Assembly (NCBI GenBank): GCA_964462445.1
Contig: CAYWXG010000001.1
Span: 11,874 to 75,873, forward strand
DNA from: an uncultured Barnesiella sp.
GTDB taxonomy: Bacteria > Bacteroidota > Bacteroidia > Bacteroidales > Muribaculaceae
Length of the DNA stretch: 64,000 bases
Direction of reading: 5' to 3'
The position numbers and the translations under genes were made by a program. Each line of letters begins with the position of its first letter. Within the stretch, counting starts at the first letter, position 1. The notes below the pieces were generated by a model that saw only the letters and a program-made list of their open reading frames with translations, was not told the DNA's origin and made no database searches. Shown here in pieces: positions 11,491-63,403 of the stretch.

Positions 11491-12621
11491 ATGGGACTTT
11501 ACAAGAAGCTTTTAATGGCATTATTGGTAGGCGGAATGGCCTCAACGTCGGCAATAGCTCAAAGTTATTACGACGATGATATCTACTATGATTCGTCGAA
11601 AGACACCAAAAAAAAGGTTGAAGATTTGAAAAAGGAAGCAAAAGCAGTCAATTCAAATGCTTCAACATCATCACAGTATCAGTATGTGACAGCCTCTGAC
11701 GGTACAGTATATATAGTAGACCAACAGGGGAATGCTTATCCGGTGGCAGCACAGAATATTCCGGGCTCGGATTTGTATACGGTCAATACCGGAAATATGC
11801 GAGATGTAGATGAATATAATCGACGCTATCAAGGCGTTGATAGTATTTCAGTGGACTCGCTGTATAGAGATCCATTTGCCAATACTCGCAATATCGAGCG
11901 ATTTTCAAATCCGACAATCGTTAGTGGTTCTAACGATCAAGCTCTGATTGAATATTATGAAACGACTCAACCGGCACAAATATATATATTTGCCGATACC
12001 CCTTATTATGGCTATTATTCACCATATTATAGCCCCTATAGCTATTGGAATAGTTGGGGATGGAATCCATGGTACTATGGCCATGGGTGGTATTCTCCCT
12101 ACTATTCATGGGCATGGGGTTGGGTTCCGTATTGGGGTCCGGGCTGGGGACCAAGTTGGTATCCCGGACCGCATCACCCACATGCTCCGGTATCGCCCGG
12201 AGCACACCGTCCCCATTATCCCGGAGGGAATATGGCCAATCACCATTCTACCGGAGGCTATCGCGGCGGTGGTAGCGGAATAAATAACCATTCAAATGGC
12301 GGTCACCGAGGAAGCGCAACGGGACGTCCGTCGACAGTAGGTAATGTCAGCTCGCTTGGAGATACACGTCCATCACCTAATTATAATGGTGGTACTCGCC
12401 CCTCGGGCAATCGCTATGGCAGTGGCAATAGTGGGACTCGCAACTCAGGTGTCAGCTCAGGCGGAAGCCGGTCGGGAGGTCGCGGAAGTGCTATCAATAA
12501 TAACAGCCGTTCGAGCAGCCCGAGCTATAGCACCCCCGGATCGTCGGGCGGAAGCCGAGGAGGATTTGGCGGTGGTGGAGGTCGTAGTAGCGGCGGAGGC
12601 GGTCGCGGTGGTCGACGATAA
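11491..12621 (+). CDS. Secreted low-complexity protein: signal peptide, globular part, Trp/Tyr/Gly/Pro block and Ser/Gly/Arg (RGG) tail
   Basis: Signal peptide MGLYKKLLMALLVGGMASTSAIA-Q. aa 171-226 hold about 11 W and 15 Y, and aa ~256-376 are S/G/R/N rich. Low complexity also generates ORFs in other frames. Confidence 0.6.
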   Translation: MGLYKKLLMALLVGGMASTSAIAQSYYDDDIYYDSSKDTKKKVEDLKKEAKAVNSNASTSSQYQYVTASDGTVYIVDQQGNAYPVAAQNIPGSDLYTVNTGNMRDVDEYNRRYQGVDSISVDSLYRDPFANTRNIERFSNPTIVSGSNDQALIEYYETTQPAQIYIFADTPYYGYYSPYYSPYSYWNSWGWNPWYYGHGWYSPYYSWAWGWVPYWGPGWGPSWYPGPHHPHAPVSPGAHRPHYPGGNMANHHSTGGYRGGGSGINNHSNGGHRGSATGRPSTVGNVSSLGDTRPSPNYNGGTRPSGNRYGSGNSGTRNSGVSSGGSRSGGRGSAINNNSRSSSPSYSTPGSSGGSRGGFGGGGGRSSGGGGRGGRR

Positions 12622-39573: not shown

Positions 39574-40551
39574 TTAAAATGCAGAAGGCTTGAGTTGCAA
39601 TCCGGTGCGCTCTGATAGCCCGAAAAGCAAATTCATGTTGTGAACAGCTGTTCCCGACGCTCCTTTAAGCAAATTGTCGATTACCGAGGTGATGAGCAAT
39701 TTCCCGTCAACCTTTTCCAAGTGAATGATACACTTGTTGGTATTGACAACATCTTTCAAATCGGCCTGCTTATCGGTTATGAAGGTGAAAGAATGGTCCT
39801 CGTAGGCTTCTTCATAGAGGTTGCGAATTGTTTCGATATCCTCTTCGATGTCTAAGTAGACAATTGCCATAATTCCGCGAGAAAAACATCCGCGCACAGG
39901 TACAAAGTTGATTTCTGCATCAAAGTCGGGTTGTAATTCACGCATTGTCTGCTTGATTTCTCCGAGATGCTGATGACGGAACGGTTTGTATATCGACACG
40001 TTGTCATTGCGCCATGAGAAATGCGAGGTTGCCGAGGGTTTAACTCCGGCTCCGGTGCTTCCTGTGATTGCTGTAACGTGAATATCACTTTTGATAAGGT
40101 GGTTTTTGGCTAAGGGGAGCAATGCCAACTGAATGGCTGTCGCAAAGCATCCGGGATTGGCCACATGCTTTGCTCCGCGTACCATAGGCTTACGGTTCCA
40201 TTCCGGCAAGCCATATACAAAATCATGCTCATCTTCGCTATCTTTCAATCTGAAATCATTGCTCAAGTCGATGATTTTGACATCCTCAGGAATAGGATTT
40301 TCCTTTAAGAATGTGCGAGATTGACCGTGAGGAGTGCAGAAGAATACTACATCAACCTCGCTCCAATCTGTCGTATCGCTGAAGCGAAGTGAAGTCTCTC
40401 CAATCAATCCTTGGTGAATGTCGGTGACCGGATTTCCGGCATTGGAGGTAGAGTGAATCCACGATATCTCTACATCGGGGTGATTGAGTAGAAGACGTAT
40501 TAACTCTCCTGCGGTGTAACCCGCGCCCCCTATTATACCTGCTTTTATCAT
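39574..40551 (-). CDS. argC: N-acyl-gamma-glutamyl-phosphate reductase
   Basis: GGAGYTAGELIRLL N-terminus and active-site NPGCFAT motif. Confidence 0.95.
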   Translation of the reverse strand: MIKAGIIGGAGYTAGELIRLLLNHPDVEISWIHSTSNAGNPVTDIHQGLIGETSLRFSDTTDWSEVDVVFFCTPHGQSRTFLKENPIPEDVKIIDLSNDFRLKDSEDEHDFVYGLPEWNRKPMVRGAKHVANPGCFATAIQLALLPLAKNHLIKSDIHVTAITGSTGAGVKPSATSHFSWRNDNVSIYKPFRHQHLGEIKQTMRELQPDFDAEINFVPVRGCFSRGIMAIVYLDIEEDIETIRNLYEEAYEDHSFTFITDKQADLKDVVNTNKCIIHLEKVDGKLLITSVIDNLLKGASGTAVHNMNLLFGLSERTGLQLKPSAF

Positions 40552-40559
40552 AGTGATGA

Positions 40560-41774
40560 TTATTTGTTATCGTCGCGACCGTTGCGCTTTTGAATATCGT
40601 GATATATCTTCATTTGGTTGCCGAGGATGCGAGTAAATCCTTTAATATCGTCGGCGGTCCATGCGCGAGAAAGCTCGCCATATTCCCCAAATGAAGTCTT
40701 CATGAGGTCAAATTTGCTGTCTACGCCTACCAAGATGTAGCGATAGGGTTTTAACTCTACGATTACTCGTCCGGTTACGTTGCGTTGTGACTTTTCAAGG
40801 AATGCCTCTATGTCGCGCATTACGGGTTCGAGATATTGAGCTTCGTGGAGGAACATTCCGTACCATGTGCCCAATTGGTCTTTCCAATATTGCTGCCACT
40901 TGGTAAGGGTGTGTTTTTCGAGCATCTTATGTGCTGCGATAATCAATAATGGTGCTCCTGCTTCAAAACCAACGCGTCCCTTGATACCGATGATTGTGTC
41001 ACCGATGTGCATATCGCGACCGATAGCATAGGGGGCGGTTAGCTCTTCAAGTTTCTGAATTGCTGCGACTTTATCTTCATATTCCACACCATTGATTCCC
41101 GCAATTTCTCCATCTTTGAAGTCGATTGTCAAAGTAGTGTCGACAGTTGCTGTCATCTGGGTAGGATATGCTTCTTCCGGAAGTGTTTGGTCGGAATGAA
41201 GTGTCTCTTTCCCGCCTACTGATGTGCCCCACAATCCTTTGTTGATTGAGTATTCCAATTTGGTGAAATCAGCTTCAAATCCATGTTCTTTCAAATAGTT
41301 GATTTCATATTCGCGAGTGAGGTTCATATCGCGAGTTGGAGTGATGATTTCAATTTCGGGAGCGAGTATTTGGAACGTGAGGTCGAAACGCACTTGGTCA
41401 TTACCGGCGCTTGTCGAACCGTGGGCTACGCAATCTGCATTGATGCTCTTTGCATATTCGATAATTGCAATAGCTTGGAATATACGCTCTGATGACACTG
41501 AAATCGGGTAGGTGCCATTGCGAAGCACGTTGCCGAATATCATATATTTGATAGAGCGTTCGTAGTACTCTTTCGTCACATCAAGTGTTACGTGTTCAAC
41601 TGCTCCAAGAGCCAATGCGCGACGTTCGATTTCTTTGAGTTCTGACTCTGAAAATCCACCGGTATTGGCAATTGCGGTATAAACTTCATATCCACATTCT
41701 TCCGATAGGTATTTCACAGCATACGAGGTGTCCAAGCCTCCTGAAAATGCCAAAACTACCTTTTTCTTTTCCAT
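40560..41774 (-). CDS. argG: Argininosuccinate synthase
   Basis: AFSGGLDTS N-type ATP pyrophosphatase motif. 404 aa. Confidence 0.95.
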   Translation of the reverse strand: MEKKKVVLAFSGGLDTSYAVKYLSEECGYEVYTAIANTGGFSESELKEIERRALALGAVEHVTLDVTKEYYERSIKYMIFGNVLRNGTYPISVSSERIFQAIAIIEYAKSINADCVAHGSTSAGNDQVRFDLTFQILAPEIEIITPTRDMNLTREYEINYLKEHGFEADFTKLEYSINKGLWGTSVGGKETLHSDQTLPEEAYPTQMTATVDTTLTIDFKDGEIAGINGVEYEDKVAAIQKLEELTAPYAIGRDMHIGDTIIGIKGRVGFEAGAPLLIIAAHKMLEKHTLTKWQQYWKDQLGTWYGMFLHEAQYLEPVMRDIEAFLEKSQRNVTGRVIVELKPYRYILVGVDSKFDLMKTSFGEYGELSRAWTADDIKGFTRILGNQMKIYHDIQKRNGRDDNK

Positions 41775-41861
41775 ATCTTTGTTTGTTTTTTTTGATTCTA
41801 TGTTGTGTTGCTTTGCTGATATCGTTCTGTTTTAATCGGGCTATCAGCAATGCAATGTGTT

Positions 41862-42458
41862 TTATTTCTCTTCTTCTGTGTTTGAATTGTTGGCCAATTC
41901 CGGGTGATATTTGGTCTCTGCCGGGTCAAATAATAATCCGGTGCATAGACATTTATGCCCACCGTTGCGCTGAAGGATGTCGTAGTTGACACAACTTTCG
42001 CATCCGCGCCAGAATGCTTCGTCGGTGGTTAATTCATCAAATGTCACGGGGCGGTATCCCAATTCAAAATTCATCTTCATCACTGCGGCTCCCGTAGTCA
42101 ATGAGAATATTTTGGCTTTAGGAAACATCTCGCGTGAGAGTTGGAAAATTCGTTGTTTGATGCGCTTGGCTACGCCGTGATTGCGAAACTCGTTGGCGAC
42201 AATCAATCCTGAATTAGCTACAAATTGTTTGTTGCTCCAACATTCAATATAGCTAAATCCGGCAAATTTGTCTCCGCACAAGGCGATTACTGCCTTATTT
42301 TCAAGCATCTTTTGCTTTACATACTCGGGCGAACGCTTCGCGATACCCGTTCCACGCACTTTTGCTGCGCGGTTGATGGTGTCGAGGATTTCTTCTACAT
42401 ATTTCACATGTTCCTCGGTCGAAACTACTACGTCAATCTTTGGTGAAGATTCTTCCAT
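41862..42458 (-). CDS. Arginine-operon GNAT acyltransferase with C-terminal Cys/His cluster (candidate glutamate N-acyltransferase)
   Basis: GNAT core (FRNHGVAKRIKQR). C-terminal CESC-x11-HKCLC. Located between argR and argG. Confidence 0.7.
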   Translation of the reverse strand: MEESSPKIDVVVSTEEHVKYVEEILDTINRAAKVRGTGIAKRSPEYVKQKMLENKAVIALCGDKFAGFSYIECWSNKQFVANSGLIVANEFRNHGVAKRIKQRIFQLSREMFPKAKIFSLTTGAAVMKMNFELGYRPVTFDELTTDEAFWRGCESCVNYDILQRNGGHKCLCTGLLFDPAETKYHPELANNSNTEEEK

Positions 42459-42536
42459 TTCGTTCTTTGTCTGCTTATTGACTCTTTTCGCTTGAGCCTA
42501 TGTCCTATTAATTTATGATGTTAATAAAAAAGTATG

Positions 42537-42544
42537 CAAAATTA
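42537..42544 (-). promoter_or_regulatory. Candidate -7 box (TAATTTTG on minus strand) upstream of the GNAT-argG-argC genes
   Basis: Plus-strand CAAAATTA, about 80 nt upstream of the start at 42458. Confidence 0.4.
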
Positions 42545-42652
42545 CGCTTTTTTGACCGATTTTACAACTTTTTTCCATGATACTGCCAATATTTTCAATC
42601 TATTGAAGATTAAATAGGACTTTTCGGACAATTTTTGACATTTATAGCTATA

Positions 42653-51655: not shown

Positions 51656-52639
51656 TTACAACACGTTGACACCTTCTTTATTGGAAATATTTTGACCATT
51701 CCCGATTGTTGTTTTTGCCGAGCGCGGGGTCATTAAATATTGCACGAAAATAATCGCAATAATTAAGATATATATCACCAAGGGTAACACCTTAAAATCG
51801 CTCGTACTGCTTATACTCTTCTCAAATTTAAGGTCGGGCACAGAGATTTTTACTGTTTGATTCTCTTTCTCAAACATATATACTCCCTCATTGTCCACTA
51901 TCACCGGAAGTTTCCCATCTTCCGACAACTCGTTTAAATAGGTTGCTATTGCCGGAGCCAATTCTCCGGGCACTTTCGACTGTAGTCCTATCGACATTAG
52001 ATCCCATCCTTTGACATCTGCCGACCATTTATTGAGCACTGAATCTACATTCTGCTTATATGTGCGATAGGGTGCAACTCCTGTCTTCCCGGTGTTGCCC
52101 AATAGCAATTGGCGTTCTTGGAGCATCCATGTCTCGATATCGGCGGGCGTTTTTATCGCTGCATCGTCAAAATATGCAGTCACATTGAGGTCCTTTTCTG
52201 AATCGATTGCCGCATGCAAGCCGGTGGTTGTGATTGCCAATGCCGACTGTTCAGCTTTTTCATATTCGCTAAACATCCCGCGCAATCTGTCAACATCGCT
52301 TACAGCCACTTTTTGCAATTCATCTTTGCTTGTCAAAACATCAACGAAATGCATCACGTAGCGTGCCGGAAATACTGCTGCCGCTAAAAACAATACGATT
52401 GCTCCGATTTCTACCTTTTTCCATCGCGCAAAATTGTTGTCAATCTTTTTGCTTTGAGTCGCAGCTTCGAGTATCAAACTCAGCACTATCACTGTCCCTA
52501 ATGCAATCCCGATTGATGCGCCCATGCTACCCGAGGTTAGCATTAGTGAGCCCATAAATGTGAAAAATCCCAGCAGAGCCAATCCTGCAAGAGCTATTAT
52601 ATTTCCTATGCCTACGCGGCTTGATTTGTCTCTTGACAT
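51656..52639 (-). CDS. Cluster gene 4: polytopic membrane protein (3 N-terminal TMs, ~190-aa loop domain, C-terminal TM)
   Basis: 327 aa. Hydrophobic segments at aa ~10-100 and ~290-310. Confidence 0.65.
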   Translation of the reverse strand: MSRDKSSRVGIGNIIALAGLALLGFFTFMGSLMLTSGSMGASIGIALGTVIVLSLILEAATQSKKIDNNFARWKKVEIGAIVLFLAAAVFPARYVMHFVDVLTSKDELQKVAVSDVDRLRGMFSEYEKAEQSALAITTTGLHAAIDSEKDLNVTAYFDDAAIKTPADIETWMLQERQLLLGNTGKTGVAPYRTYKQNVDSVLNKWSADVKGWDLMSIGLQSKVPGELAPAIATYLNELSEDGKLPVIVDNEGVYMFEKENQTVKISVPDLKFEKSISSTSDFKVLPLVIYILIIAIIFVQYLMTPRSAKTTIGNGQNISNKEGVNVL

Positions 52640-52673
52640 ATTTCGTTATTTTCTTTTGTTTCTGTTTTTATCG

Positions 52674-52705
52674 GGAGGTGGGGCCTTTTGACCTATCCCA
52701 CCTCC
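52674..52705 (-). other. Intercistronic GC-rich stem-loop between the subtilase gene and the next cluster gene
   Basis: 9-bp stem GGAGGTGGG / CCCACCTCC with a 14-nt loop, inside the 78-nt gap. It is the only GC-rich hairpin I noticed inside the cluster. Confidence 0.5.
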
Positions 52706-52717
52706 TCCTGTTTTTTA

Positions 52718-54841
52718 TTATATGTTATCGTTGCTTCTGACAAGATAATAAGAAGATCCGTCCGACGAACCGCCGTAGTACGATACACATTCAAGCATTC
52801 CGTTTGCTCCGCGTTTGCATTCTATTGTTACAGGTGAAAACGGCGTGGGGCAAGTCGGTGATGTCGCATTCCCTTGTTGACGTATTGTCAACTTATCGTT
52901 GCGCAACTCGCTTTTGAATGCTGCGCTGTGTTTACACCCGCCGTCGGTCTTGTAATAGATGGTTCCACTGTTGATTGAATTGAATTTCAGATATATGTGT
53001 GTCATCTCTCCCGTTGGTTCATTGGTCTCCGAATCTGTCACTATTCTCTCTTCGGTGGTTTTCCACAGCCCTTTGATACTGTTGGGATCCTCTTTAATTT
53101 CGTCGAACTTCGCAACATTGCCTCCGGCAGCTTCAAGAGCATCGCGCACCTGTATCAACTTCCCGATATGACCATTACGGTCAACTACCTTGCCGGTCTT
53201 GTCTAATATCTCGATAATCTCTGTATTCGTAAGATTCGGATTTACCGACTTCATCAATGCTACTGCTCCCGATACTATTGGTGCGGCCATCGATGTGCCG
53301 GGGCAGAACCCATATCCGTTGGCAGGTCCTGCACTATATATATCAACACCGGGGGCTGAAATAGTTGAGTAATTGATACCTTGTGATTCGTAATTACCAT
53401 AGTTGCTGAAATCGGCTTTCTTCAAGTCCTGTCCTACGGCACTTACTCTGATGGTGCTTTCGCCTCGCTTGGTCTCATCCATCCCCGACAATACGTTGCA
53501 ATTTCCTGCTGCCCACACTATGGTACAATTCTTTTTGTCGGCAAGTTTGAACACATAGTCCCACACATCTTCTTGGTATTTATCAACTTGGTTGATATAT
53601 TCCAGCTGTGTGTTTACCGGCAAATTTTGTGCTTCCGGGGGAAACATTTGTTGAAGCGACAAATTGATGACATCGGCACCTTGGTTGATTGCATACAGAA
53701 CACCCTCAAGCATCGCACTCGACGACATGTGTGCGCCCAACGAGATTGGCATCAATTTGCAATTTGGTGCTAATCCTGCCGCACCGACTCCATTGTTAAG
53801 CGCTCCTACGGCAAGTCCGGCTACGTGCGTCCCGTGATAGATTATTGCATCATCCGGATTGTGGAATGAATATGGTCCGGGTGGGGGCATGACATTGCGC
53901 GACCTACGTTCAACACTGAACGGCTTAACCACGCGACCCTTGAATTCCGGGTGGGTGATATCAATATAACTGTCAATAACTGCAACTACAATATCTTCAG
54001 AACCTTGCGTAATTTCCCATGCCTCATATGTTTGGATAGGTGCGAAATGCCAACTCTTCTTCTGGCTCTTAAACGCCGGGTCATTATATTTCGACCCGTT
54101 GGTTGCCGAGTTATTGAACATTACATCGTCAAACAACTTGTATTCAATATCCGTGATTTCTTGTTGGATTCGATTTTTTACATTCTCGCGTTCCGTAGGA
54201 TTAACCATGATTTGCATCAAACCGGCCTCCGGATTGTAATATTCAATGTTGACATTGTCATCGGGATACATTTGCTTGAGTTTGCGTGCAAACTTTTTGA
54301 AATTTTCCTCTGAATTGTCCTCTAATATTACGTCTATGAGAGTCCCGTCAATCTGCTTATAGGGGTCATCTTCCGGGGTTATTATATACTCGGGCTTCGG
54401 CTCTACTCTGCGATTTTCCTCAGGACTCGGCAACTCCTTGATTGGTTCTTGGAAATTATCTTCAGGTAATGGCTCATTGATAATATCCATCAATTCCTCA
54501 TCATCTTTGAACCGCTCGTCTACTATATCGCCGTTCTCATCGATATATTCCGGAATTTCAATATTAACATCATTAACATCGTCCTCATTAAGGTCATCGA
54601 TATATGTAGGATCATCAATTAAATCTATGCCTTCTTTGTTTGACTTGCTACTACTATTTTCGGGCAATGAATGTAGCCATCTCAATAGTATTAGGAATCC
54701 GAATAATAGAATTAGAAACAAGAGATAGCGCCAAATCAGTCCACCTATTGGTGCCGGTTTATCTTGATTTCCCCTTTGATTTTCTATATTAATTCGTTTC
54801 ATCTTTTTTTGTTTAAATGGTAATTGAGAGGATTTAAACAC
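52718..54841 (-). CDS. Cluster gene 3: membrane-anchored subtilisin-like (S8) serine protease
   Basis: Basic N-terminus plus TM (LIWRYLLFLILLFGFLILL), then an acidic D/E/N-rich linker. Catalytic motifs VAVIDSYID (D290, 53972-53974), HGTHVAG (H336, 53834-53836), AAGN and GTSMAAP (S517, 53291-53293). Alternative start at 54802. Confidence 0.85.
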   Translation of the reverse strand: MFKSSQLPFKQKKMKRINIENQRGNQDKPAPIGGLIWRYLLFLILLFGFLILLRWLHSLPENSSSKSNKEGIDLIDDPTYIDDLNEDDVNDVNIEIPEYIDENGDIVDERFKDDEELMDIINEPLPEDNFQEPIKELPSPEENRRVEPKPEYIITPEDDPYKQIDGTLIDVILEDNSEENFKKFARKLKQMYPDDNVNIEYYNPEAGLMQIMVNPTERENVKNRIQQEITDIEYKLFDDVMFNNSATNGSKYNDPAFKSQKKSWHFAPIQTYEAWEITQGSEDIVVAVIDSYIDITHPEFKGRVVKPFSVERRSRNVMPPPGPYSFHNPDDAIIYHGTHVAGLAVGALNNGVGAAGLAPNCKLMPISLGAHMSSSAMLEGVLYAINQGADVINLSLQQMFPPEAQNLPVNTQLEYINQVDKYQEDVWDYVFKLADKKNCTIVWAAGNCNVLSGMDETKRGESTIRVSAVGQDLKKADFSNYGNYESQGINYSTISAPGVDIYSAGPANGYGFCPGTSMAAPIVSGAVALMKSVNPNLTNTEIIEILDKTGKVVDRNGHIGKLIQVRDALEAAGGNVAKFDEIKEDPNSIKGLWKTTEERIVTDSETNEPTGEMTHIYLKFNSINSGTIYYKTDGGCKHSAAFKSELRNDKLTIRQQGNATSPTCPTPFSPVTIECKRGANGMLECVSYYGGSSDGSSYYLVRSNDNI

Positions 54842-54850
54842 GATTTTGTA

Positions 54851-57769
54851 TTACTTGATAAGGCGATCAATCAATTGCCCGATTCGTTTGTTGGCCTCAA
54901 TATCATAATCTATTATCTGACCCTTAAGCAAGAACGACACTATCATATATTCTATCCATTTGAAATAATTATCCTCAAATGCTTTTGTCACTCCGTCAGG
55001 ACGATCGATAAGTTGATTAAACATTTCGGTCAACTCCTCGGCGGTGTAGTTTTCTGCGTGATCTTGGGTGATATACTCTAACGGGTCAAATTTTATCGGA
55101 TTTTCATCAACAAGGCGATTGGCGACGTCACGTTCTTCTTCACTTCGCATGCTATAACCTAAATCGCTGATGAAATCATTGATTTTCGATGCCATCAAAT
55201 CCGCTATCAAACTGATATTGATGCCACTGATATTGATAACCTTTACATGCTCCTCGATTGTCTTATCAAGAACTTCCTCAAGATTAAGCTTGCGTGCTGT
55301 CAGTTCAATATTGTCAACTAAAGCCGACATCTCTATCGGGTCAAATGCGCCGTTATCGCACAACTTATTTATCGACTCCGGTTTCTTGATTGAGTCTTTC
55401 CATGTCTCATATACGGTCTCTGCAATTATTGTCGAATTTGTCTTGCGTTTGAAATCCCCGGCAAATAGTTTATTCGCATCAACTCCCTTTTCTGCCAAGA
55501 ATTTTTCTGCCGACTCTCTATCCGGAAGACCATAACTTACCATTACGCATTCCCATTTCATATCTGTGGTCTTGCATCGGTCAAGACGCTTGCCGATATC
55601 CTTGCGGATGATTTCATAATTGCGTGTATCATTGACCGAATCATTCATCATCGATGAGTTAACAAGGTCATAGATGCTGTTGTAAAGGGTCTTTTCAGTG
55701 GTTTGCAATTCGCGAATCATTCTTCCGAAGAAATAACTATCATTATTGCATGAGAATATCAACTCGCGACGTATTGCGCATGCTTGATTCATATCTTGCA
55801 ACAACTGTGTCGCAGCATCGTCGGCATGATAATATCCTTTGAGAATATCATGAAGTGCCTTCCCGATATTTTTTAGCGTGGTTGATGTTTGCTCTTGGCG
55901 AGCATTCTCCATATTCGACGCTGCCACTGCAAGTTGCTGGAACAAAAACAACGCGCCATCGTTATTTTGTGTCGCTGCAACATCCCATGAGCATGCTGGA
56001 TTGGCAAAAAATTTCTGCGTATACGGACTTTCGATAAACGACTGTCGCATTCTTTCGTAATACACATTATCCATTGCCGATTTTTGCTCGCATCCGGTTT
56101 CTCTAAATCCGGTGTATAGGTTGTTCCCCTTTCCGGTGTCGCCTGAATATTTATAGTCGCGGAGCAAATATGTGTTCTTAAAGGTGTCCCCTTCGGTTAT
56201 CCAATTTTGGAACCAGTCAGCGTCATTTCCATGAATCACTTCTTTGTATAGAACTACATTAAAGCGGTCGCCCCAACGCTGGTCGATAGCGTTACGCGAA
56301 TTGGCAACATCATCGGCATTAGCATCTGCCATTGTCATGTCGATGTTGAATTTTGTCGCTATCAAGAAGAATGGTGATACTCCTCCGGTCAACTTTAGAG
56401 TGCGTGCTCTGTGTTGAGAGGTCTCTCCTACATATTGCTTAATCCAATTTTCTATCGTCAGATATAACGTGTCATCATTTCGTTGCGCGTTATCGTGGCA
56501 GAACAATAATATATTGATTAACCCGCAGTCGCTATATCGATTAAACAAATATGCTACTTTACCACGAAGATACACATTGGCGTCATTCGACATTGCACTC
56601 TTGGTATCGGTCTTGTCAAGATTTTCCTCTTTGAGCTGATTGCGGGCACGTGCTCCCGGGAAGTCGAGCAAGTCGGTGTGCTTGATGATGTCTTTTTTGA
56701 ATGGCTTATTGGGCAATACGCCTCTTACCGTCGGGTCGCTTATCATCGTCATGTCATAAGTCAACTCCGAATTCAAAAAGCGTTCTTCTACCTTGAACAC
56801 CGCCTCGGCGCAGAGTGCCGACAATTCGCTCTTGTCATATCGGTCTATGACCTTGGTCCCGCCGTCAGAAGTCTTGATGATTACTTTTGTGAACGATGAT
56901 TCTTCGCTCTTGTCTTTAATATTCAACTCATTGATACGTTGCACCGACATCAATGTCTGATTTGTATTGAGTACTGCCTCTATAGGTAGATACACCTGTT
57001 TGGCATAACTTAAATTGCGCAATGCTTCGCTCAAGTGTTGGAATAATTTTGTCAATGTTGCATTGCCATGCCATAATGGTGCGAATATTTGACTCCATTC
57101 CGATGCCTCCACATTGCGGGCAATTAGTGCTACTCGCTCAAAATATGGCGAACGCATCAGAGATTGAGTGTTCCCCGACGTGCTGCGACGTAGATAATCC
57201 TTCATGTCGAGAATATCATCTTCGACTACTACCGGATTGCTCAATGGCTGAAGCTCTTTATATGTTTCATATATCTCGGTTGAGATTTTATTCAACTCAT
57301 TGTCCGAATAGCTTTGATAGTCGGTTATGTCGTTATGATATCCGTCGCAAAGTATTGATGCAATCTCACTCATGCCGAGCAATTTTATCAACACCGGATA
57401 TTCTGCGTTATAGCGGCCGGGGTCGTTGGCAAATGTTGTGAAACGTGTCACCACTCCGGTTGCCTCTACATTATTAGTTATAGGATTAATCTCCTTCACA
57501 AAATCATATTCGCGAGTGGGGGTTACCACGGAAAATGGCTTTCCGTTATCGCTAAGCATATTGGTGATAACATACGACTTCCCCTTTTGACTCTCTCCGT
57601 AGGCTGCTATCGCCGGATTTTCAGGCTCCGTAGCGGCAAGTTTGCGCAAGCGGCAGCGCTCATTCACCAATTGTAGAAAGCGCTGCTCATATTGGTCCGG
57701 CTTATTCACCTTGAGCCATGCCAACGCATCATTGATATTATTTATCTGGGCTTGTATGGAATTTTTCAT
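54851..57769 (-). CDS. Cluster gene 2: giant dynamin-like GTPase (SrfC-like by recollection)
   Basis: G1 GESQKGKS (57575-57598), G2 GVVTR (57443-57457), G3 DFPG (56654-56665) and G4-like TKFN (56345-56356). About 260 aa are inserted between G2 and G3. Start at ATG 57769, 13 nt after the upstream stop; the ORF extends to 57817. Confidence 0.75.
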   Translation of the reverse strand: MKNSIQAQINNINDALAWLKVNKPDQYEQRFLQLVNERCRLRKLAATEPENPAIAAYGESQKGKSYVITNMLSDNGKPFSVVTPTREYDFVKEINPITNNVEATGVVTRFTTFANDPGRYNAEYPVLIKLLGMSEIASILCDGYHNDITDYQSYSDNELNKISTEIYETYKELQPLSNPVVVEDDILDMKDYLRRSTSGNTQSLMRSPYFERVALIARNVEASEWSQIFAPLWHGNATLTKLFQHLSEALRNLSYAKQVYLPIEAVLNTNQTLMSVQRINELNIKDKSEESSFTKVIIKTSDGGTKVIDRYDKSELSALCAEAVFKVEERFLNSELTYDMTMISDPTVRGVLPNKPFKKDIIKHTDLLDFPGARARNQLKEENLDKTDTKSAMSNDANVYLRGKVAYLFNRYSDCGLINILLFCHDNAQRNDDTLYLTIENWIKQYVGETSQHRARTLKLTGGVSPFFLIATKFNIDMTMADANADDVANSRNAIDQRWGDRFNVVLYKEVIHGNDADWFQNWITEGDTFKNTYLLRDYKYSGDTGKGNNLYTGFRETGCEQKSAMDNVYYERMRQSFIESPYTQKFFANPACSWDVAATQNNDGALFLFQQLAVAASNMENARQEQTSTTLKNIGKALHDILKGYYHADDAATQLLQDMNQACAIRRELIFSCNNDSYFFGRMIRELQTTEKTLYNSIYDLVNSSMMNDSVNDTRNYEIIRKDIGKRLDRCKTTDMKWECVMVSYGLPDRESAEKFLAEKGVDANKLFAGDFKRKTNSTIIAETVYETWKDSIKKPESINKLCDNGAFDPIEMSALVDNIELTARKLNLEEVLDKTIEEHVKVINISGINISLIADLMASKINDFISDLGYSMRSEEERDVANRLVDENPIKFDPLEYITQDHAENYTAEELTEMFNQLIDRPDGVTKAFEDNYFKWIEYMIVSFLLKGQIIDYDIEANKRIGQLIDRLIK

Positions 57770-57782
57770 GACTGTTTTCTTT

Positions 57783-60700
57783 TTATCTGAGTGAAAGTTC
57801 AAATTCACCTTTATCAAGCCAATGCTTGCCGTCGGCTACTATCGATTGCTGTACTATCTCAATTGTGGATTTTGGAAGTGTGTTCCCTTGCATATCGGTC
57901 ACTTCCTCTATTTCCACCACCTCTCGGTCATCTTGATATGAACGTGTCAATGTGATGCGTACCGGCTCATGATTCTTCCCTGCAAAATAGATGCCGTAGA
58001 GTGGGCGTGCTTGATATAACGCCGAATCAAACTGTTTGCAACCCAAGAACACCGGGAATGAGCCAATTGTTGTCGATGCATTTGACTTGTCGGGGAACAA
58101 CAATGACTTCTTCACCAATTGTGTCGATGCATCATAGAAACCTATGAAATTGGAGGTTGGTTTCATCTGGCGTATCATCTCCTTGAAATCAATACGCAAT
58201 CCATTGAAGCCTATCGTTGATGCCATGTAGCCTACCATTGCACCCACTGCAACTACCGACTTCTGGTCATAGAAATATCCCTGACCATCGGCAAATGGAT
58301 ACCACGTGCCTACACGATAATCATTTAAACAAATAATCCTGTCGGGCGACATCGGATAATATTTGATAAACAATTCAGGTATTGCATCTATTGTTGTCGG
58401 ACGTCCGGCCATGACTAATATGTCGCACTTATATGCATAGAGCAATATCGACAATTGCTTCATCAATGGCTCCATCGTTGTGCGAACCATCGACGCTATC
58501 TCTTCCGGGTCATAGCGCCACGACAACTCCTCAAATCTAAAGCCGAAATGATTAGCGAAATGATTGAGCAAATGTTCCGACGGTTTCAAATCACCGAAAA
58601 TTTCATCATAGGTGTAGACTCGCGACGGGAATTTGCGACGTAGCAAATCCATCATCTTGCGTGCTATCGGCACCGAAATCTGTGTGTTGAAATCTACGCG
58701 CGCATGACGATCTTTAAACGACATCATTGCGCTATCATATCCAAAGAAATCGCGTAGCAACACTGATGCAAAGTATCGTGTACGCTCCTCTCTGCGTTCC
58801 GGTGACTGACAACCGATAATATCCTCTACGTAGGTGCGATACACGTCGGTATACTTCGCTTTGGTGCATGGCAACAATCGCAACTCTTCATCGCTCATTG
58901 ATATCAAGCGGGCGAGCAATGCACTATGTATGCTTCCCATAAACGCGATTCCGGTCTCTGGCCCTTCTATTACATAGCGTTGTACGATTGTGCGCAATAT
59001 ATCATCTCCTGCTACATAGAAGCTATCATAGAAATGGGGCACAGGAACTATCGAACTTTGCTCCTCTCCCTCATATTTGTAGGAACATATCATGATGTCG
59101 GTTGTCCCGGCACCTATATCGATTGACCCTATTGTCAAAGAGTTGTGTTCATATCCATCTTCAATGAATTCTTTCCTGCGGTGTCCCTTCGCTTCAAAGA
59201 ATTGATCGATTTTGCCATTGTAGCGTTGTGCTATCTCTGCATAGAGATATACAAGCTGGCACGCTGAGGCCTCGTCATAGCTCCATTGGCGCTTATCAAG
59301 CATATCATAATCGTCGGTATTCTTCAACGCTTCCGGTGAGGGTATCACAGTTATAGGCGTTAGTGAGGGATTGCAACGCAACATTGCCTTCTGTGCATCT
59401 ACCATGCTTTGGCGCAATGTAATCTGTTCGGCACGTGGCATTGCCGTAGGGCATGTAATTACTACGTTGCGCAATCTACGGCGACAATCTATTTTCCCAT
59501 GCTTTGTTCTGAACTTCGGCGAGTTGATTTGGGCGATAGCCTGTTGTAACACTTCTACCATAACAAATGTCATCATCGACGAACGTGAATAATGACAATC
59601 AGTGTCGGTTTCTTCTGGCATCATATCAAAGATATTCACCGTGTCGGCTTTCTCTTTAAAGGTGCCTCGTTCATCAAACATATCGGTGAAATTCTGCAAG
59701 AAGATATTAGGCGATTGTCTGACATTGAACGGGTCGGTATCGGTGATGAGATATTCCCATCTCGCTTGAGATTTTTTCTTATCCCACAAATATCGTTTGG
59801 GCGATGAATAACTGTTGGCTCGTTCGGCAATTCCGCTATCTTCTATCGAATGATACACCAATAAGCGTGCTTCTTCTCCCACGCGTACAATGCTCTTCCA
59901 ATTAAATGCCTCCTCCGGCAATATCAAGTCGTTGCCAAAATCCGCACGACGATACACTAATCGCATATCAAACGGATTCTTGTATGTAATCCATGGTGAG
60001 GTGAGGTTGCGCAACTCAAGCATTACTGAGCGCGTGAAATCTCCATCTTCAAACAATACACCACATGTGCGCGAATTGCCGATATCAAGTACCATATCTA
60101 CATTCACATCACCATCATTCGGATTATATAGAGTGACATTGGGTGATACTCCGCTCAATCGCAAGAAGTTGATTAGATAAATATAGTATGCTATAAATTT
60201 ATATCGGTGGTGCACCAACTTTTCCGGGTCTACACCCAACAGCGATGCAACATATTGCGATATAGCGTCTTGGTCCTCTTGGACTGATAGAAAATTAAAC
60301 AGCAAATCCGGCTTATTGCATAAAGCAAATGTCTTTTTTCGCTCTGACTCATCAAAGAAATAGGGGAAATAGATCGACAACGGATTTTCTGCCAAATGAG
60401 TGTCAAATGCCCATGTAAAACTATATTTCGACGACCCTTTGACACTCCCTTCTCCTACGCGACGTATTCGTACTCTACACCATCCCATCGGAACTCCTGT
60501 GGTTGTGCCAGTTGCATCTGTCTCAAACATCGGCATTGGCAACCATTTATCCAACAGCAATTCAAATGCCGGCAATTTATCTATCGGATTTGCCGGATTT
60601 TTTATGCGGTAGCTCTCAAAGGTGTTGATATTGATTATTGAATCATCTTCATCGCCATACGACTCCAATAATTCCGTCGATACATCATCGCGCATTTTGG

Positions 60701-60971
60701 GTACTCCGGTCTCATCAAGTTCCTCACTTCCGTTTTGATGTAATGAGATATAGCCTTCGCTGCGAAGCTGCTTCACCGGTATCCAACAATTCTTATCTAT
60801 GTGATTGAATAGCAAATCAAAACTGATATGACCGTCAAAAGGATCGACTGTCTCAACAAATGAATACCGTAACATTCTTCCACTTGGGAGTGCAAACGGC
60901 TCCGACGAGTTAAATTCAAGTTCATTGGTCGTAAACTGAATGCCGGTATCAGTAATAAGGTGTAGGTCCAT
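57783..60971 (-). CDS. Cluster gene 1: giant actin/Hsp70-fold (ASKHA) ATPase-like protein (SrfB-like by recollection)
   Basis: 1062 aa with phosphate-1-like MVLDIGNSRTCG (60063-60089) and phosphate-2-like SIDIGAGTTD (59097-59120), plus VMAGRPT near the C-terminus. Confidence 0.75.
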   Translation of the reverse strand: MDLHLITDTGIQFTTNELEFNSSEPFALPSGRMLRYSFVETVDPFDGHISFDLLFNHIDKNCWIPVKQLRSEGYISLHQNGSEELDETGVPKMRDDVSTELLESYGDEDDSIININTFESYRIKNPANPIDKLPAFELLLDKWLPMPMFETDATGTTTGVPMGWCRVRIRRVGEGSVKGSSKYSFTWAFDTHLAENPLSIYFPYFFDESERKKTFALCNKPDLLFNFLSVQEDQDAISQYVASLLGVDPEKLVHHRYKFIAYYIYLINFLRLSGVSPNVTLYNPNDGDVNVDMVLDIGNSRTCGVLFEDGDFTRSVMLELRNLTSPWITYKNPFDMRLVYRRADFGNDLILPEEAFNWKSIVRVGEEARLLVYHSIEDSGIAERANSYSSPKRYLWDKKKSQARWEYLITDTDPFNVRQSPNIFLQNFTDMFDERGTFKEKADTVNIFDMMPEETDTDCHYSRSSMMTFVMVEVLQQAIAQINSPKFRTKHGKIDCRRRLRNVVITCPTAMPRAEQITLRQSMVDAQKAMLRCNPSLTPITVIPSPEALKNTDDYDMLDKRQWSYDEASACQLVYLYAEIAQRYNGKIDQFFEAKGHRRKEFIEDGYEHNSLTIGSIDIGAGTTDIMICSYKYEGEEQSSIVPVPHFYDSFYVAGDDILRTIVQRYVIEGPETGIAFMGSIHSALLARLISMSDEELRLLPCTKAKYTDVYRTYVEDIIGCQSPERREERTRYFASVLLRDFFGYDSAMMSFKDRHARVDFNTQISVPIARKMMDLLRRKFPSRVYTYDEIFGDLKPSEHLLNHFANHFGFRFEELSWRYDPEEIASMVRTTMEPLMKQLSILLYAYKCDILVMAGRPTTIDAIPELFIKYYPMSPDRIICLNDYRVGTWYPFADGQGYFYDQKSVVAVGAMVGYMASTIGFNGLRIDFKEMIRQMKPTSNFIGFYDASTQLVKKSLLFPDKSNASTTIGSFPVFLGCKQFDSALYQARPLYGIYFAGKNHEPVRITLTRSYQDDREVVEIEEVTDMQGNTLPKSTIEIVQQSIVADGKHWLDKGEFELSLR

Positions 60972-60988
60972 AATAGAAATTGATAATT

Positions 60989-61000
60989 AGGCTTAAGCCT
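60989..61000. repeat. Perfect 12-bp palindrome AGGCTTAAGCCT in the 5' leader of the nine-gene cluster
   Basis: Read directly, 18 nt upstream of the start codon at 60971. Confidence 0.5.
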
Positions 61001-61064
61001 GTTGTGGTTTTTATTTGGCATTGCCGTTAGGTTTTAATGGTAGGCTATGCCATTGTATATTCTG

Positions 61065-61072
61065 CAAATATA
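61065..61072 (-). promoter_or_regulatory. Candidate -7 box (TATATTTG on minus strand) for the nine-gene cluster
   Basis: Plus-strand CAAATATA, about 95 nt upstream of the start at 60971. Lies in an AT-rich 450-bp intergenic region. Confidence 0.3.
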
Positions 61073-61421
61073 ATTAATATTGTTTAATATATGTGCGATT
61101 TTCCTACATATTTATTCATTTTTTTTCTTCTTAATTCACATTTTTTCTATCATTTCTCCTCTTCTGATTATAGATCGCTCTTTAGAAAGAATCCATTTCC
61201 CCTTTACAATATTTCCAAAGAAACCTTCACCCAATGAAATGCCGAAACACGAAGTGGAAGTAGTGCAGCGTTGAGGAATTCAGACAATGAATTAATCCTC
61301 GTCTGTGTCATCATTTGATTTATGATATAGTGCCCCCCGAGCCTAAATATTAAGAATGCTAATGCTGCAATACGTCCAATATTCAAATATTTGCTTTATT
61401 TTGATTTATGCATATAGATGA

Positions 61422-61979
61422 TTATTGCTTTATTTTGACGGATTTGGGTAATGAGGTATTCTTACATCCTACAATCAGAGTATTTGATTTAGTCTCAATT
61501 ATTGCGTTGCAATTATTTCGAGAATCATAAATTTTATTCTGAGGATCTATAATTATCGTTGATAATCCGGGACAATCATGAAATGCGAATCTGCCAATTT
61601 TAGTTACTGATTTGGGTATCTGAACTTTTGGCAGGTTGGCACAATCGCTAAAGGCATATTTCCCTATACATGTTATAGTATTTGGGATTGTTACTTTCTT
61701 TAATTCAACACATGAGGAGAATGCGCTCTCTCCAATTGATATTACTTTATAGGTTGTGCCCGCATAATTTACTGAGGTTGGGATAGTGACGTTGCCGGTG
61801 TATTCATTAGAATAGGTAAGTGAGTTCTCCCCTTTATATGTGATTTCGACGGTTTTGTTGTTGAATGATAGTTTCCTATAATAGATTCCTGCAACTTCAA
61901 TATCGTGAGCGAAAGCATGATTGATACCGACAAGTATCATTATAATAATTATCCAAGATTGGCAACTACGGCATTTCAT
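61422..61979 (-). CDS. Small BspA-type leucine-rich-repeat (LRR_5/TpLRR-like) secreted protein
   Basis: Signal peptide from ATG 61979 (MKCRSCQSWIIIIMILVGINHAFA). Repeats IGESAFSSC..LKKVTIP / IGKYAFSDC..LPKVQIP / IGRFAFHDC..L. The ORF extends to a TTG at 62009. Confidence 0.7.
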   Translation of the reverse strand: MKCRSCQSWIIIIMILVGINHAFAHDIEVAGIYYRKLSFNNKTVEITYKGENSLTYSNEYTGNVTIPTSVNYAGTTYKVISIGESAFSSCVELKKVTIPNTITCIGKYAFSDCANLPKVQIPKSVTKIGRFAFHDCPGLSTIIIDPQNKIYDSRNNCNAIIETKSNTLIVGCKNTSLPKSVKIKQ

Positions 61980-62293
61980 AATAAAATGTTTGTATTTTTC
62001 TATCCCCAAATATAATAAATCCTCAACACGTAAAGAAAAATATGTCGCGAAAAAAACGCAATATATATCATAAAATAATTATAGATGGTGCCGTGGCTTT
62101 AAATAGTCAAAACTCTTTGCCGGTGGAATTCGAAAATTGTTTTTCTCTGCTCAAATTGTTTTTGATGTATTATGTTGTTTGAAATTTTATTATTTTTTGG
62201 TCTATTTTTCTGACATTTTGCCATATCTTGCGCGAATATTTAGAATAATGGAAATTTTTCTTTAAGTTATATCTGTTTTACAATAAAAATTAC

Positions 62294-62301: not shown

Positions 62302-62335
62302 CAAAAAATCAATGTAAATTTTATTACTCACCGTT

Positions 62336-63403
62336 ATGAAGAAACATAACTTTTATGCAGGCCCATCTATCTTGAGCCAGTACACTATCAAAAACACTGC
62401 CGACGCAGTGCTCAATTTTGCTGATACAGGTCTCTCTATTCTCGAAGTGTCTCACCGTAGCAAAGAGTTCCAAGCCGTTATCGACGAAGCTAACGCGCTT
62501 GTGAAAGAATTGCTCGACGTCCCCGCAGGTTACGAAGTAGTTTTCCTCGGAGGTGGTGCAAGCCTTCAATTTGCGATGGTGCCCTTCAACCTTCTCAAAA
62601 CTAAAGCTGCCTATATCGATACCGGTGTTTGGGCTAATAAAGCTATAAAAGAAGCTAAACTTTTCGGCGATGTTGAGGTCGTTGCTTCTTCTAAGGATGC
62701 TAACTACACTTTCATCCCCAAAGATTACACAATACCTGCCGATGCCGACTATTTCCATTTTACTACCAACAACACTATCTACGGTACTGAAACTCGTAAA
62801 GACATCGACTCTCCCGTGCCTTTGGTGGCTGATATGTCGTCCGACATCTTCTCTCGTCCTATCGACGTTGCTAAATACAACTGTATTTATGCCGGTGCGC
62901 AGAAGAACCTTGCTCCGGCAGGCGTAACTATAGTCATCGTTAAAGAAGATGCTCTCGGTAAAGTGGATCGCCCTATTCCCACTATGCTCAACTACCAGAC
63001 TCACACCTCTAAGGGCTCAATGTTCAACACTCCCCCCGTGCTTCCTATCTACTCTGCGTTGCAGACTCTTCGCTACTACAAGCAACTCGGCGGCGTGAAA
63101 GAACTCGAAAAAATCAACATCGAAAAAGCTGCAATCCTCTACGATGCAATTGACTCAAGCAAATTGTTCGTTGGTACTGCCGCTGAAGAAGACCGCTCTT
63201 TGATGAACGTTTGCTTCGTGATGAAACCCGAATATGCTGAGCTCGAAAAAGAATTCGTTGAATTTGCTTCTGCTAATGGCATGGTAGGCATCAAAGGACA
63301 CCGTTCTGTTGGTGGTTTCCGTGCATCGCTCTACAATGCAATGCCTATTGAAAGCGTTAAAGCTCTCGTTGCTTGCATGAAAGAATTTGAAGCTAAACAC
63401 TAA
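62336..63403 (+). CDS. serC: Phosphoserine aminotransferase
   Basis: 355 aa with FYAGPS N-terminus, [14 protein letters not shown] (PLP lysine) and [10 protein letters not shown] motifs. Confidence 0.95.

Follow-up and report, generated by a model that had tools for sequence, protein, structure and literature searches.

The stretch of DNA analysed here (the window, 64,000 nucleotides (nt); GenBank assembly GCA_964462445.1, contig CAYWXG010000001.1, forward-strand positions 11,874 to 75,873) comes from an uncultured Barnesiella sp. of the family Muribaculaceae. It carries an operon of nine minus-strand genes (45249..60971) in which neighbouring genes are spaced by -10 to 78 nt, and which is bounded by gaps of 450 and 300 nt. 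The gene under study, srfB, encodes a protein of 1062 amino acids (aa). The initial annotation of this DNA, which was made from the letters alone, had proposed a reading frame of this length at the head of an operon, and a minus-strand open reading frame (ORF) with an ATG start was indeed found there. Given the intergenic gap of 450 nt on its 5' side and the 13 nt that separate the srfB stop from the ATG of srfC at 57769, srfB is the first gene of the operon. SrfB has no hydrophobic segment, transmembrane segment or signal peptide by sequence prediction and is thus predicted to be cytoplasmic. Judged from its modelled structure together with its family identity, it almost certainly belongs to the Hsp70 branch of the ASKHA superfamily, as a cytoplasmic member of very large size. 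The features of the operon are collected in Table 1.

Table 1. Features of the srfB operon and of the SrfB protein (window coordinates; ~ marks the counterpart in E. coli DnaK)
Feature	Position	Strand	Basis
srfB coding sequence, 1062 aa, ATG start	57783..60971	-	ORF and translation
N-terminal beta-rich SrfB-specific domain, aa 1-285	60117..60971	-	model secondary structure and conservation
Hsp70-type nucleotide-binding domain (predicted), aa 286-920	58212..60116	-	Foldseek; entries with this domain only align over ~646 columns
Phosphate-1 loop MVLDIGNSRTCGVLFED, aa 293-309; D296 ~ D8	60045..60095	-	hhalign, aa 295-308 with DnaK 7-20
SSPKRYLWD, aa 389-397; K392-R393 proposed ~ catalytic K70-R71	59781..59807	-	region-limited hhalign
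VITCP, aa 504-508 ~ VITVP 139-143 (P508 ~ P143)	59448..59462	-	region-limited hhalign, E=0.03
DEASACQLVYLY, aa 566-577 ~ NEPTAAALAYG 170-180	59241..59276	-	by eye; would pair E567 with E171
Phosphate-2 loop IGSIDIGAGTTDIM, aa 614-627	59091..59132	-	hhalign, aa 613-628 with DnaK 189-204, 56% identity
Adenosine motif VMAGRPT, aa 853-859 ~ LVGGQTRMP	58395..58415	-	hhalign, aa 814-913 with DnaK 294-377
C-terminal domain, aa 921-1062	57786..58211	-	model secondary structure; Foldseek
srfC, 972 aa from ATG 57769, cytoplasmic P-loop GTPase (predicted)	54851..57769	-	PF10139, E=1.4e-104
Gene 3, 707 aa, membrane-anchored S8 subtilase with SrfA-C-like domain	52718..54841	-	Peptidase_S8, E=7.5e-42
Gene 4, 327-aa polytopic membrane protein, cluster C6	51656..52639	-	hydrophobic segments; synteny in Bacteroidales srfBC operons
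Gene 5, 571 aa, C-terminal half a second GTPase (predicted), cluster C7	49869..51584	-	alignment A4, synteny
Four genes, 530, 296, 298 and 373 aa	45249..49833	-	one hydrophobic or signal-like segment each; gaps -10 to 51 nt
Presumed operon promoter region	60972..61421	-	450-nt gap

By sequence, the protein is an ordinary full-length member of the already named SrfB family. It matches Pfam PF07520 with E=7.2e-172 (574 bits, against a curated cut-off of 27.1), and when its N-terminal, insertion, core and C-terminal segments were scanned separately they covered positions 13-990 of the 992 in the profile, so that the membership suspected at the outset extends over the whole length. Run against Pfam at E<=10, the isolated segments returned only SrfB, plus marginal matches to the phosphate-2 region of FtsA (E=0.008) and to DUF4119. 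No NCBIfam model matches SrfB or SrfC, and neither protein has a match in PADLOC or PHROGs. A word-indexed search recovered 1481 relatives of SrfB. The closest are Bacteroidales proteins (99-52% identity) from Barnesiella, Muribaculaceae, Prevotellaceae and Alistipes, some of them annotated as "virulence factor SrfB", and the nearest named relative is a protein of a Barnesiella sp. with 87% identity. In an exhaustive HMMER comparison with 1.84 billion cluster representatives, 1148 clusters (at 50% identity) reached E<=1e-3 and 425 of these reached E<=1e-30.

Residue conservation was examined in 78 full-length SrfB homologues of 25-47% identity, to which all conservation figures for SrfB given here refer. 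Invariant are M1, W143, D296, G298, G365, S389, W396, W405, G436, E473, R498, P508, P544, D566, D618, G620, G622, G655, D850, G856, K904, G910 and W1051, while N299, S300, K392, R393, E567, T623 and D625 are conserved in at least 90% of the sequences. The aspartates and glycines of the two motifs on which the initial annotation had based its assignment are thus conserved across the family. Their retention in homologues as distant as these implies selection on catalysis.

A full-length AlphaFold2 model was obtained from 59 sequences, with a mean predicted local distance difference test score (pLDDT) of 85.2 and a predicted template modelling score (pTM) of 0.85. Foldseek comparison with 350,542 PDB chains gave 174 matches at E<=0.001, and the best 50 of these 174 are all Hsp70s. 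The top match is the ATP-bound open form of DnaK (4b9q, E=1.2e-12, probability 1.0), and 7ko2, 4jn4, 5nro, AMPylated BiP, Ssb, Hsp110/Sse1 and Ssz1 are also among the 50. In the viral library BFVD, 13 matches reached E<=0.001; apart from unnamed entries that resemble the others in size and alignment length, they are Hsp70s of giant viruses or HSP70h of closteroviruses. The initial annotation had called an ASKHA-fold ATPase, and in this confident model its two motifs form the phosphate-1 and phosphate-2 loops. It had named actin, ParM, MreB and Hsp70 for comparison; only the last is represented, as actin, ParM, MreB and FtsA are all absent from the 50 best listed structural matches in either library. 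With ParM, MreB and FtsA, SrfB has in common the ASKHA fold and the loops DxG and DxGGGTT(D/E)...AGD(D/E), but its closest relatives among the listed matches are Hsp70 and DnaK (docked 4b9q, 4jn4 and 5nro; Hsp110 Sse1; Ssz1). Compared with these, SrfB is nearly twice as large, owing to its 285-aa N-terminal domain and to two insertions of about 150 aa in the nucleotide-binding domain, at about aa 310-460 and 670-835.

The motifs of the predicted nucleotide-binding domain were mapped by local hhalign alignments of the SrfB family profile with E. coli DnaK (locus L005). All three motifs noticed initially (the two phosphate loops and VMAGRPT) are found at the residues then assigned to them. The nucleotide ranges first given lie inside the true ones but are too narrow (Table 1), and the conserved aspartate of the first motif is D296, preceded by L295, rather than residue 295. 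In the phosphate-2 loop D618, T623 and D625 are paired with D194, T199 and D201 of DnaK, G856 of VMAGRPT is likewise paired with DnaK, and 3' of VMAGRPT the segment DQKSVVAVGAMV (aa 902-913) is aligned with NPDEAVAIGAAV at DnaK 366-377. In SSPKRYLWD, where S389 and W396 are invariant, S390, P391, K392, R393, Y394, L395 and D397 are each conserved in at least 90% of homologues; a region-limited hhalign run aligns the KRYL of this motif with KRLI at DnaK 70-73, a pairing that is not significant alone. Around DEASACQLVYLY, D566 is invariant and E567, A568 and Q572 reach at least 90%, and the pairing of this segment with NEPTAAALAYG was not recovered by hhalign. The phosphate-1, phosphate-2 and adenosine segments are co-linear between SrfB and DnaK, with pairings that are singly not significant, and the motifs held in common with Hsp70 comprise, in the same order, phosphate-1, KR, VITxP, phosphate-2, adenosine and a C-terminal GAA motif. 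Because of this co-linearity, the structural match and the strict conservation, the most economical reading is that SrfB carries a functional Hsp70-like active site.

The two ends of SrfB differ in character. For the N-terminal domain the only Pfam family matched is SrfB itself. Its portion from about aa 135 to 285 is conserved throughout the family (W143, P145, P147, P161, W164, R166, D190 and T191), whereas aa 1-130 are specific to Bacteroidota-type proteins, proteobacterial homologues being alignable only from about aa 130. The initial annotation had recognised no motif in the first ~290 or the last ~200 residues. For the former this stands, but the latter appear to comprise the end of the nucleotide-binding domain and a beta sandwich resembling the substrate-binding domain of Hsp70. 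In the model, the C-terminal domain consists of a short strand (aa 925-927), possibly a docked linker, followed by an 8-stranded beta sandwich (aa 942-1041).

The resemblance of this sandwich to the substrate-binding beta domain (SBD-beta) is suggested by two comparisons. In the PDB, full-length Hsp70s in the docked, ATP-type conformation match SrfB with E of ~1e-12 over ~800 columns, against 2.5e-8 over ~646 columns for entries with the nucleotide-binding domain (NBD) only. The docked structures that outscore NBD-only or undocked ones are 4b9q, 7ko2, 4jn4, 5nro, AMPylated BiP, Ssb and Hsp110, while the undocked ADP-state DnaK 2kho (E=1.3e-8) is well under them. NBD-only entries of BFVD align over 588-610 columns with E=2e-6 to 4e-6, and over both libraries the docked Hsp70s are better by about four orders of magnitude and about 150 columns. 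When aa 921-1062 were modelled separately (pLDDT 80) and searched against the PDB by Foldseek, the top match was again DnaK (4b9q_D, E=6.6e-3, probability 1.0), with a root-mean-square deviation of 4.2 A over 113 columns and a query-normalised template modelling (TM) score of 0.46. All later matches had a probability of <=0.21, the best of them being the Hsp70 Ssz1. Since docked Hsp70s outrank NBD-only entries and the domain by itself matches DnaK first, the C-terminal sandwich of the model is probably, if not yet firmly, an SBD-beta-like domain without lid.

SrfC, encoded by the next gene, is by its motif set a predicted GTPase of dynamin type. In 15 sequences G.SQ.GKS, the switch-I threonine T104 and DFPG are invariant, and TK[FMH]D/N is found in most. 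The initial annotation had spoken of an adjoining dynamin-like GTPase. SrfC does have the P-loop and dynamin-type G1, G3 and G4 motifs, but as no dynamin profile is matched the label rests on these motifs: neither Dynamin_N nor any other GTPase family of Pfam was found at E<=10, and a sequence search of the PDB gave no match.

The third product combines an S8 subtilase, with readable catalytic D, H and S motifs, and a single transmembrane segment (aa 35-53). Its C-terminal part is a four-cysteine, lipocalin-like domain with weak matches to Lipocalin_4 (E=0.008) and SrfA_fam (E=0.083). The protein is homologous (E=3e-94) to an 811-aa protein of Acetofilamentum (L007 16853..19288). Two stretches of the latter match SrfA_fam (E=3.4e-35), and BLASTP aligns its N-terminus with the SrfA-N and its C-terminus with the SrfA-C of proteobacterial SrfA. 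The S8 domain appears to sit inside an SrfA-type architecture of transmembrane segment, S8 and SrfA-C, of which the Acetofilamentum homologue retains SrfA-N as well. A canonical SrfA (NF040486: SrfA-N, transmembrane segment, SrfA-C) was sought in the operon and not found. Given its homology to the SrfA_fam protein of Acetofilamentum, the third product may be viewed as an SrfA derivative that gained a protease and lost SrfA-N in this lineage. Its start codon is ambiguous, either a GTG at 54841 or a later in-frame ATG, with ~35 residues preceding the transmembrane segment.

Downstream, the 571-aa protein appears to be a second GTPase, with GIPSSGKTC invariant in four orthologues, a Walker B motif [ED]xxGE and a G4 motif [TS]KxD. 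These motifs lie in its C-terminal half, next to ~280 unassigned N-terminal residues. The protein has no hydrophobic segment, and a sequence search of the PDB gave nothing usable. Its match to PF19993 (DO-GTPase2) is sub-threshold (E=0.03, 14.4 bits against a cut-off of 27), and it is possibly related to the DO-GTPases. The remaining five products (327, 530, 296, 298 and 373 aa) are, by their hydrophobic segments, predicted to be membrane or secreted proteins. No Pfam or NCBIfam family matches the 327-aa protein, and searches of Pfam, NCBIfam and PHROGs gave nothing for the other four. Of these, the 530-aa protein forms a conserved cluster (C11) and has a long charged region of low complexity after its transmembrane segment. 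Among the operon proteins other than SrfB and SrfC, PADLOC-DB 2.0 matched only two, the S8 protein to a generic subtilase model and the 327-aa protein, marginally (E=0.0075), to RTasNitrilase/DRT.

Comparative analysis indicates that srfB and srfC travel together. A genome scan found 18 loci from Bacteroidota, Alpha- and Gammaproteobacteria, Desulfovibrionaceae, a Sporobacter and Planctomycetes, and in 21 of 22 loci, from five phyla, SrfC is encoded directly after SrfB or at most three genes away. In a metagenome-assembled genome of Phycisphaerae (L022 9368..17859) three genes (208, 448 and 323 aa) separate srfB from a divergent srfC, and in the Acetofilamentum locus one 329-aa gene lies between the two. 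The order SrfB, SrfC, S8, ~320-aa protein and ~540-610-aa protein is kept in five more Bacteroidales loci (L001-L004 and L006), among them that of Segatella copri, whose SrfB is only 30% identical to the one in the window. A sixth gene of ~565-600 aa follows in L001-L003, and the flanking genes differ between the five loci. The srfB-srfC-S8 order also occurs on plasmid pSP2_1 of Runella sp. SP2 (L024 1..10730), where the operon lies directly 3' of a BREX-1 system (PglZ, BrxL and a methylase/restriction subunit), a single instance. SrfA, or a membrane protein bearing SrfA-C, is present in most loci. In proteobacterial loci srfA is upstream (NF040486, E=4e-142) and genes for vWA, ABC ATPase, FtsX/MacB permease and FGE-sulfatase proteins are downstream. 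Matches to SrfB were found on 144 plasmids, only 27 of these matches covering at least 80% of the protein, with hosts that include plant- and soil-associated bacteria; 50,697 phage records contained no SrfB homologue. PADLOC was run on 81 flanking ORFs from 16 loci, called naively so that some real genes were lost in high-GC loci. It reported a type III methyltransferase within 10 kb in Segatella (L006), one ORF of a type I methyltransferase family, one cyclase-like PycC and one mad2. As such defence-gene neighbours are too few, no enrichment in defence islands is claimed.

The srfABC genes were named as an SsrB-regulated operon of Salmonella. In that organism an srfC mutant, a polar srfB mutation and deletion of the whole operon each impair swarming and not swimming (PMC4219756). 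SrfA, SrfB and SrfC of Xenorhabdus co-immunoprecipitate and form a heteromeric complex (PMC6950479). SrfA has been described as a bitopic protein whose transmembrane segment joins a kinase-like N-domain to a periplasmic lipocalin domain. In an AlphaFold3 model SrfB and SrfC sit on the cytoplasmic SrfA-N; the same study doubts the effector annotation and likewise reports the genes downstream of proteobacterial srfABC (bioRxiv 10.64898/2026.09.18.752743). A 2025 review ascribes no function to SrfB or SrfC, which it lists as putative type III effectors (PMC11942329), in line with the initial annotation, which had regarded the biochemical role of SrfB as unknown. GTPase-centred conflict systems with canonical HSP70, GrpE and DnaJ were described by Kaur et al. 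2020, who do not mention SrfB or SrfC (PMC7159879). In the SrfABC papers examined ATPase or GTPase domains of SrfB or SrfC are not mentioned, and the literature searched held no description of the fold or Hsp70-likeness of SrfB, of SrfC as a GTPase, or of the Bacteroidales operon. Both the reading of SrfB as Hsp70 plus SBD-beta and the Bacteroidales operon with its S8/SrfA-C fusion and second GTPase therefore appear to be undescribed in that literature.

Compared with its counterparts in Salmonella and Xenorhabdus, the SrfB of the window has the same PF07520 match, invariant motifs and SrfC partner, with 26-28% identity to proteobacterial SrfB over aa ~130-1055, but it is longer by ~130 N-terminal residues and comes from a Bacteroidales bacterium of the gut. 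Its operon runs B-C-A* instead of A-B-C, where A* denotes the SrfA counterpart without SrfA-N and with an S8 protease, and in place of the vWA, ABC-FtsX and FGE-sulfatase genes of proteobacterial loci there are the second GTPase and the membrane proteins. The DO-GTPase/GAP1 systems (PMC7159879) are alike in combining an Hsp70-fold ATPase, TRAFAC-class GTPases and membrane components. However, they use canonical HSP70, GrpE, DnaJ-fused proteins and GAP1, none of which was detected in the operon of the window.

We suggest that SrfB would bind and hydrolyse ATP and that, in the fashion of Hsp70, its C-terminal domain would close on a stretch of a partner protein or open again according to the nucleotide state. 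Such a clamp would act within a membrane-anchored complex with SrfC and an SrfA-type bitopic membrane protein, which in this organism would bear a periplasmic S8 protease and the SrfA-C domain. SrfB would thereby be an ATP-driven clamp or switch of an envelope-associated machine with several nucleoside triphosphatases (NTPases), coupling its cytoplasmic nucleotide state to events in the membrane or periplasm, such as proteolysis, and it would be neither a filament nor a secreted toxin. This mechanism, built on the predicted structure and on analogy with Hsp70, is proposed tentatively and at somewhat under an even chance. Taken as one account, in which the identity and fold of SrfB are blended with the mechanism, it is fairly probably the best explanation of the locus. 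As SrfB is a relative of Hsp70 paired with a GTPase and membrane proteins, a machine attached to the membrane inside the cell is likelier than a secreted virulence factor.

Several observations weigh against this interpretation. At the sequence level, SrfB does not match PF00012 (HSP70) in Pfam even at E<=10, neither phmmer with the single sequence nor hmmsearch with a 78-sequence profile gave a significant PDB match, and hhalign of the family profile with E. coli DnaK reached a probability of only 22%. Since the fold matches Hsp70 without a sequence signal, SrfB would be built on an Hsp70-type scaffold while standing outside the Hsp70 sequence family. The counterparts proposed for K70 and E171 depend on motif-level or by-eye pairing. 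The SBD-beta assignment is weak (a single DnaK chain, with the E value and TM score given above), hhalign detected no sequence similarity of the C-terminal domain to the DnaK substrate-binding domain, and unlike Hsp70 the domain has no helical lid, as ~20 residues with one 4-residue helix follow the last strand. Nor did any of the nine operon proteins match a DnaJ/J-domain or GrpE family; where Hsp70 has such partners, SrfB has a GTPase. Finally, the third gene product lacks SrfA-N, the platform domain that is proposed to bind SrfB.

Other explanations were weighed against the clamp. The initial annotation had left open whether SrfB behaves as a polymerising scaffold or as a chaperone-like clamp; of the two, the clamp is favoured because the fold is specifically Hsp70-like within ASKHA. 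Were SrfB an ATPase of the actin, ParM or MreB kind, its filaments would provide SrfC and the membrane proteins with a scaffold or cytomotive element. This reading would account for the ASKHA fold and phosphate loops, which SrfB has in common with actin-like proteins, and for its sole sequence echoes outside the SrfB family, the phosphate-2/AGDE region of MreB (E=6.9) and the phosphate-2 region of FtsA noted above. Multimerisation has also been speculated for the HSP70 components of GTPase-centred systems (Kaur et al. 2020, PMC7159879). Filament formation is nevertheless quite improbable, given that the significant matches listed are all Hsp70s and that SrfB bears Hsp70-specific signatures (KR, VITxP and an NPDEAVAxGAA-like motif) as well as the SBD-beta-like domain. 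We know of no actin-like filament former with such large insertions and terminal domains. A pseudo-ATPase without catalytic activity, acting purely as a structural scaffold, would have a precedent in atypical Hsp70s such as Ssz1, which are mainly scaffolds, and Ssz1 structures are among the listed matches. It is hardly to be expected here, since all or at least 90% of the homologues agree at the proposed catalytic positions and in the loops for phosphate and adenosine, a degree of conservation that would be surprising for a dead site.

SrfB has also been regarded as a subunit of a secreted SrfABC toxin or as a type III effector acting inside eukaryotic cells. Lysates of E. coli that expresses the SrfABC proteins of Xenorhabdus are toxic to cells of insects and mammals, and any one of the three proteins by itself induces apoptosis (PMC6950479); SrfB and SrfC have been reviewed as putative effectors (PMC11942329), and public annotation of homologues reads "virulence factor SrfB". 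Several points make this very unlikely. SrfB and SrfC have neither signal peptide nor transmembrane segment, their operon partners are membrane proteins with periplasmic domains, and the family occurs in gut commensal Bacteroidales, free-living Alphaproteobacteria, Desulfovibrionaceae, a Sporobacter, Planctomycetes and plasmids of plant and soil bacteria. To our knowledge, Bacteroidales lack type III secretion. Furthermore, the Salmonella mutants are defective in swarming only (PMC4219756). A role of SrfB-SrfC as the NTPase core of a conflict system, for example against phage, with S8, vWA or other linked proteins as sensors or effectors, would be compatible with the clamp, and it is unlikely to a lesser degree. 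Besides a protease, the operon encodes a second GTPase that weakly matches DO-GTPase2, and proteobacterial loci carry vWA, FGE-sulfatase and ABC/FtsX genes, the vWA and FGE-sulfatase-type (FGS) domains being recurrent in conflict systems (PMC7159879). BREX-1 adjoins the operon on the Runella plasmid, a restriction-modification methyltransferase lies within 10 kb in Segatella and one more flanking ORF matches a type I methyltransferase family. The distribution is patchy, the 144 plasmids included, and the flanks differ between genera. On the other hand, SrfB and SrfC have no PADLOC match, GAP1 or another family of DO-GTPase systems was not detected among the operon proteins, and the system includes no nuclease, TIR or similar effector. 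The accessory genes are kept within each lineage rather than being hypervariable, housekeeping genes flank the operon in the window and in the Bacteroidales loci L001 and L003, phage records contain no homologue, and defence-gene neighbours are too few for an enrichment.

Returning to the clamp, a broader and rather doubtful extension of it is that SrfB-SrfC on an SrfA-type protein may form a hitherto overlooked machine of the envelope that serves membrane remodelling, vesicle formation or trans-envelope signalling and perhaps also has a role in conflict. Its label as a secreted virulence factor or toxin would then have been wrong for 25 years, and in Bacteroidales it would control a periplasmic S8 protease. 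The S8/SrfA-C fusion suggests that the system has its output on the periplasmic side. SrfB and SrfC comprise about 1100 sequence clusters in at least five phyla, including Salmonella, Klebsiella plasmids, plant symbionts and abundant human-gut Bacteroidales. The "virulence factor" or "toxin" label, which has spread to commensals, is in our view misleading and the family is probably mis-annotated. SrfB itself offers no new fold or chemistry, but the Hsp70-type reading, the GTPase partner and the membrane anchor make a widespread family of unknown function approachable by experiment.

The genes on the 3' side of the operon (39574..44948, minus strand) encode a 5'-nucleotidase/metallophosphoesterase, an arginine repressor, argininosuccinate synthase and an enzyme of the semialdehyde dehydrogenase family. 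As these are housekeeping genes, the operon does not lie in an obvious mobile or defence island in this genome. A scan of the operon for sigma-70 promoters and terminators gave background levels, such a scan being uninformative for a Bacteroidales genome. In the presumed promoter region, TATATTTG at 61072..61065 (minus strand), ~94 nt 5' of the srfB ATG, presumably resembles the -7 element TAnnTTTG of Bacteroides. Separated from srfB by the 450-nt gap is a gene (61422..62009, minus strand) for a 195-aa BspA-type leucine-rich-repeat protein (LRR_5, E=1.3e-19) with an N-terminal hydrophobic segment, which may be a fragment of a larger surface protein. Beyond it, a 226-aa ORF without family match (62324..63004, minus strand) overlaps serC (62336..63403, plus strand; phosphoserine transaminase, NF003764, E=7e-143), and is probably a spurious antisense ORF.

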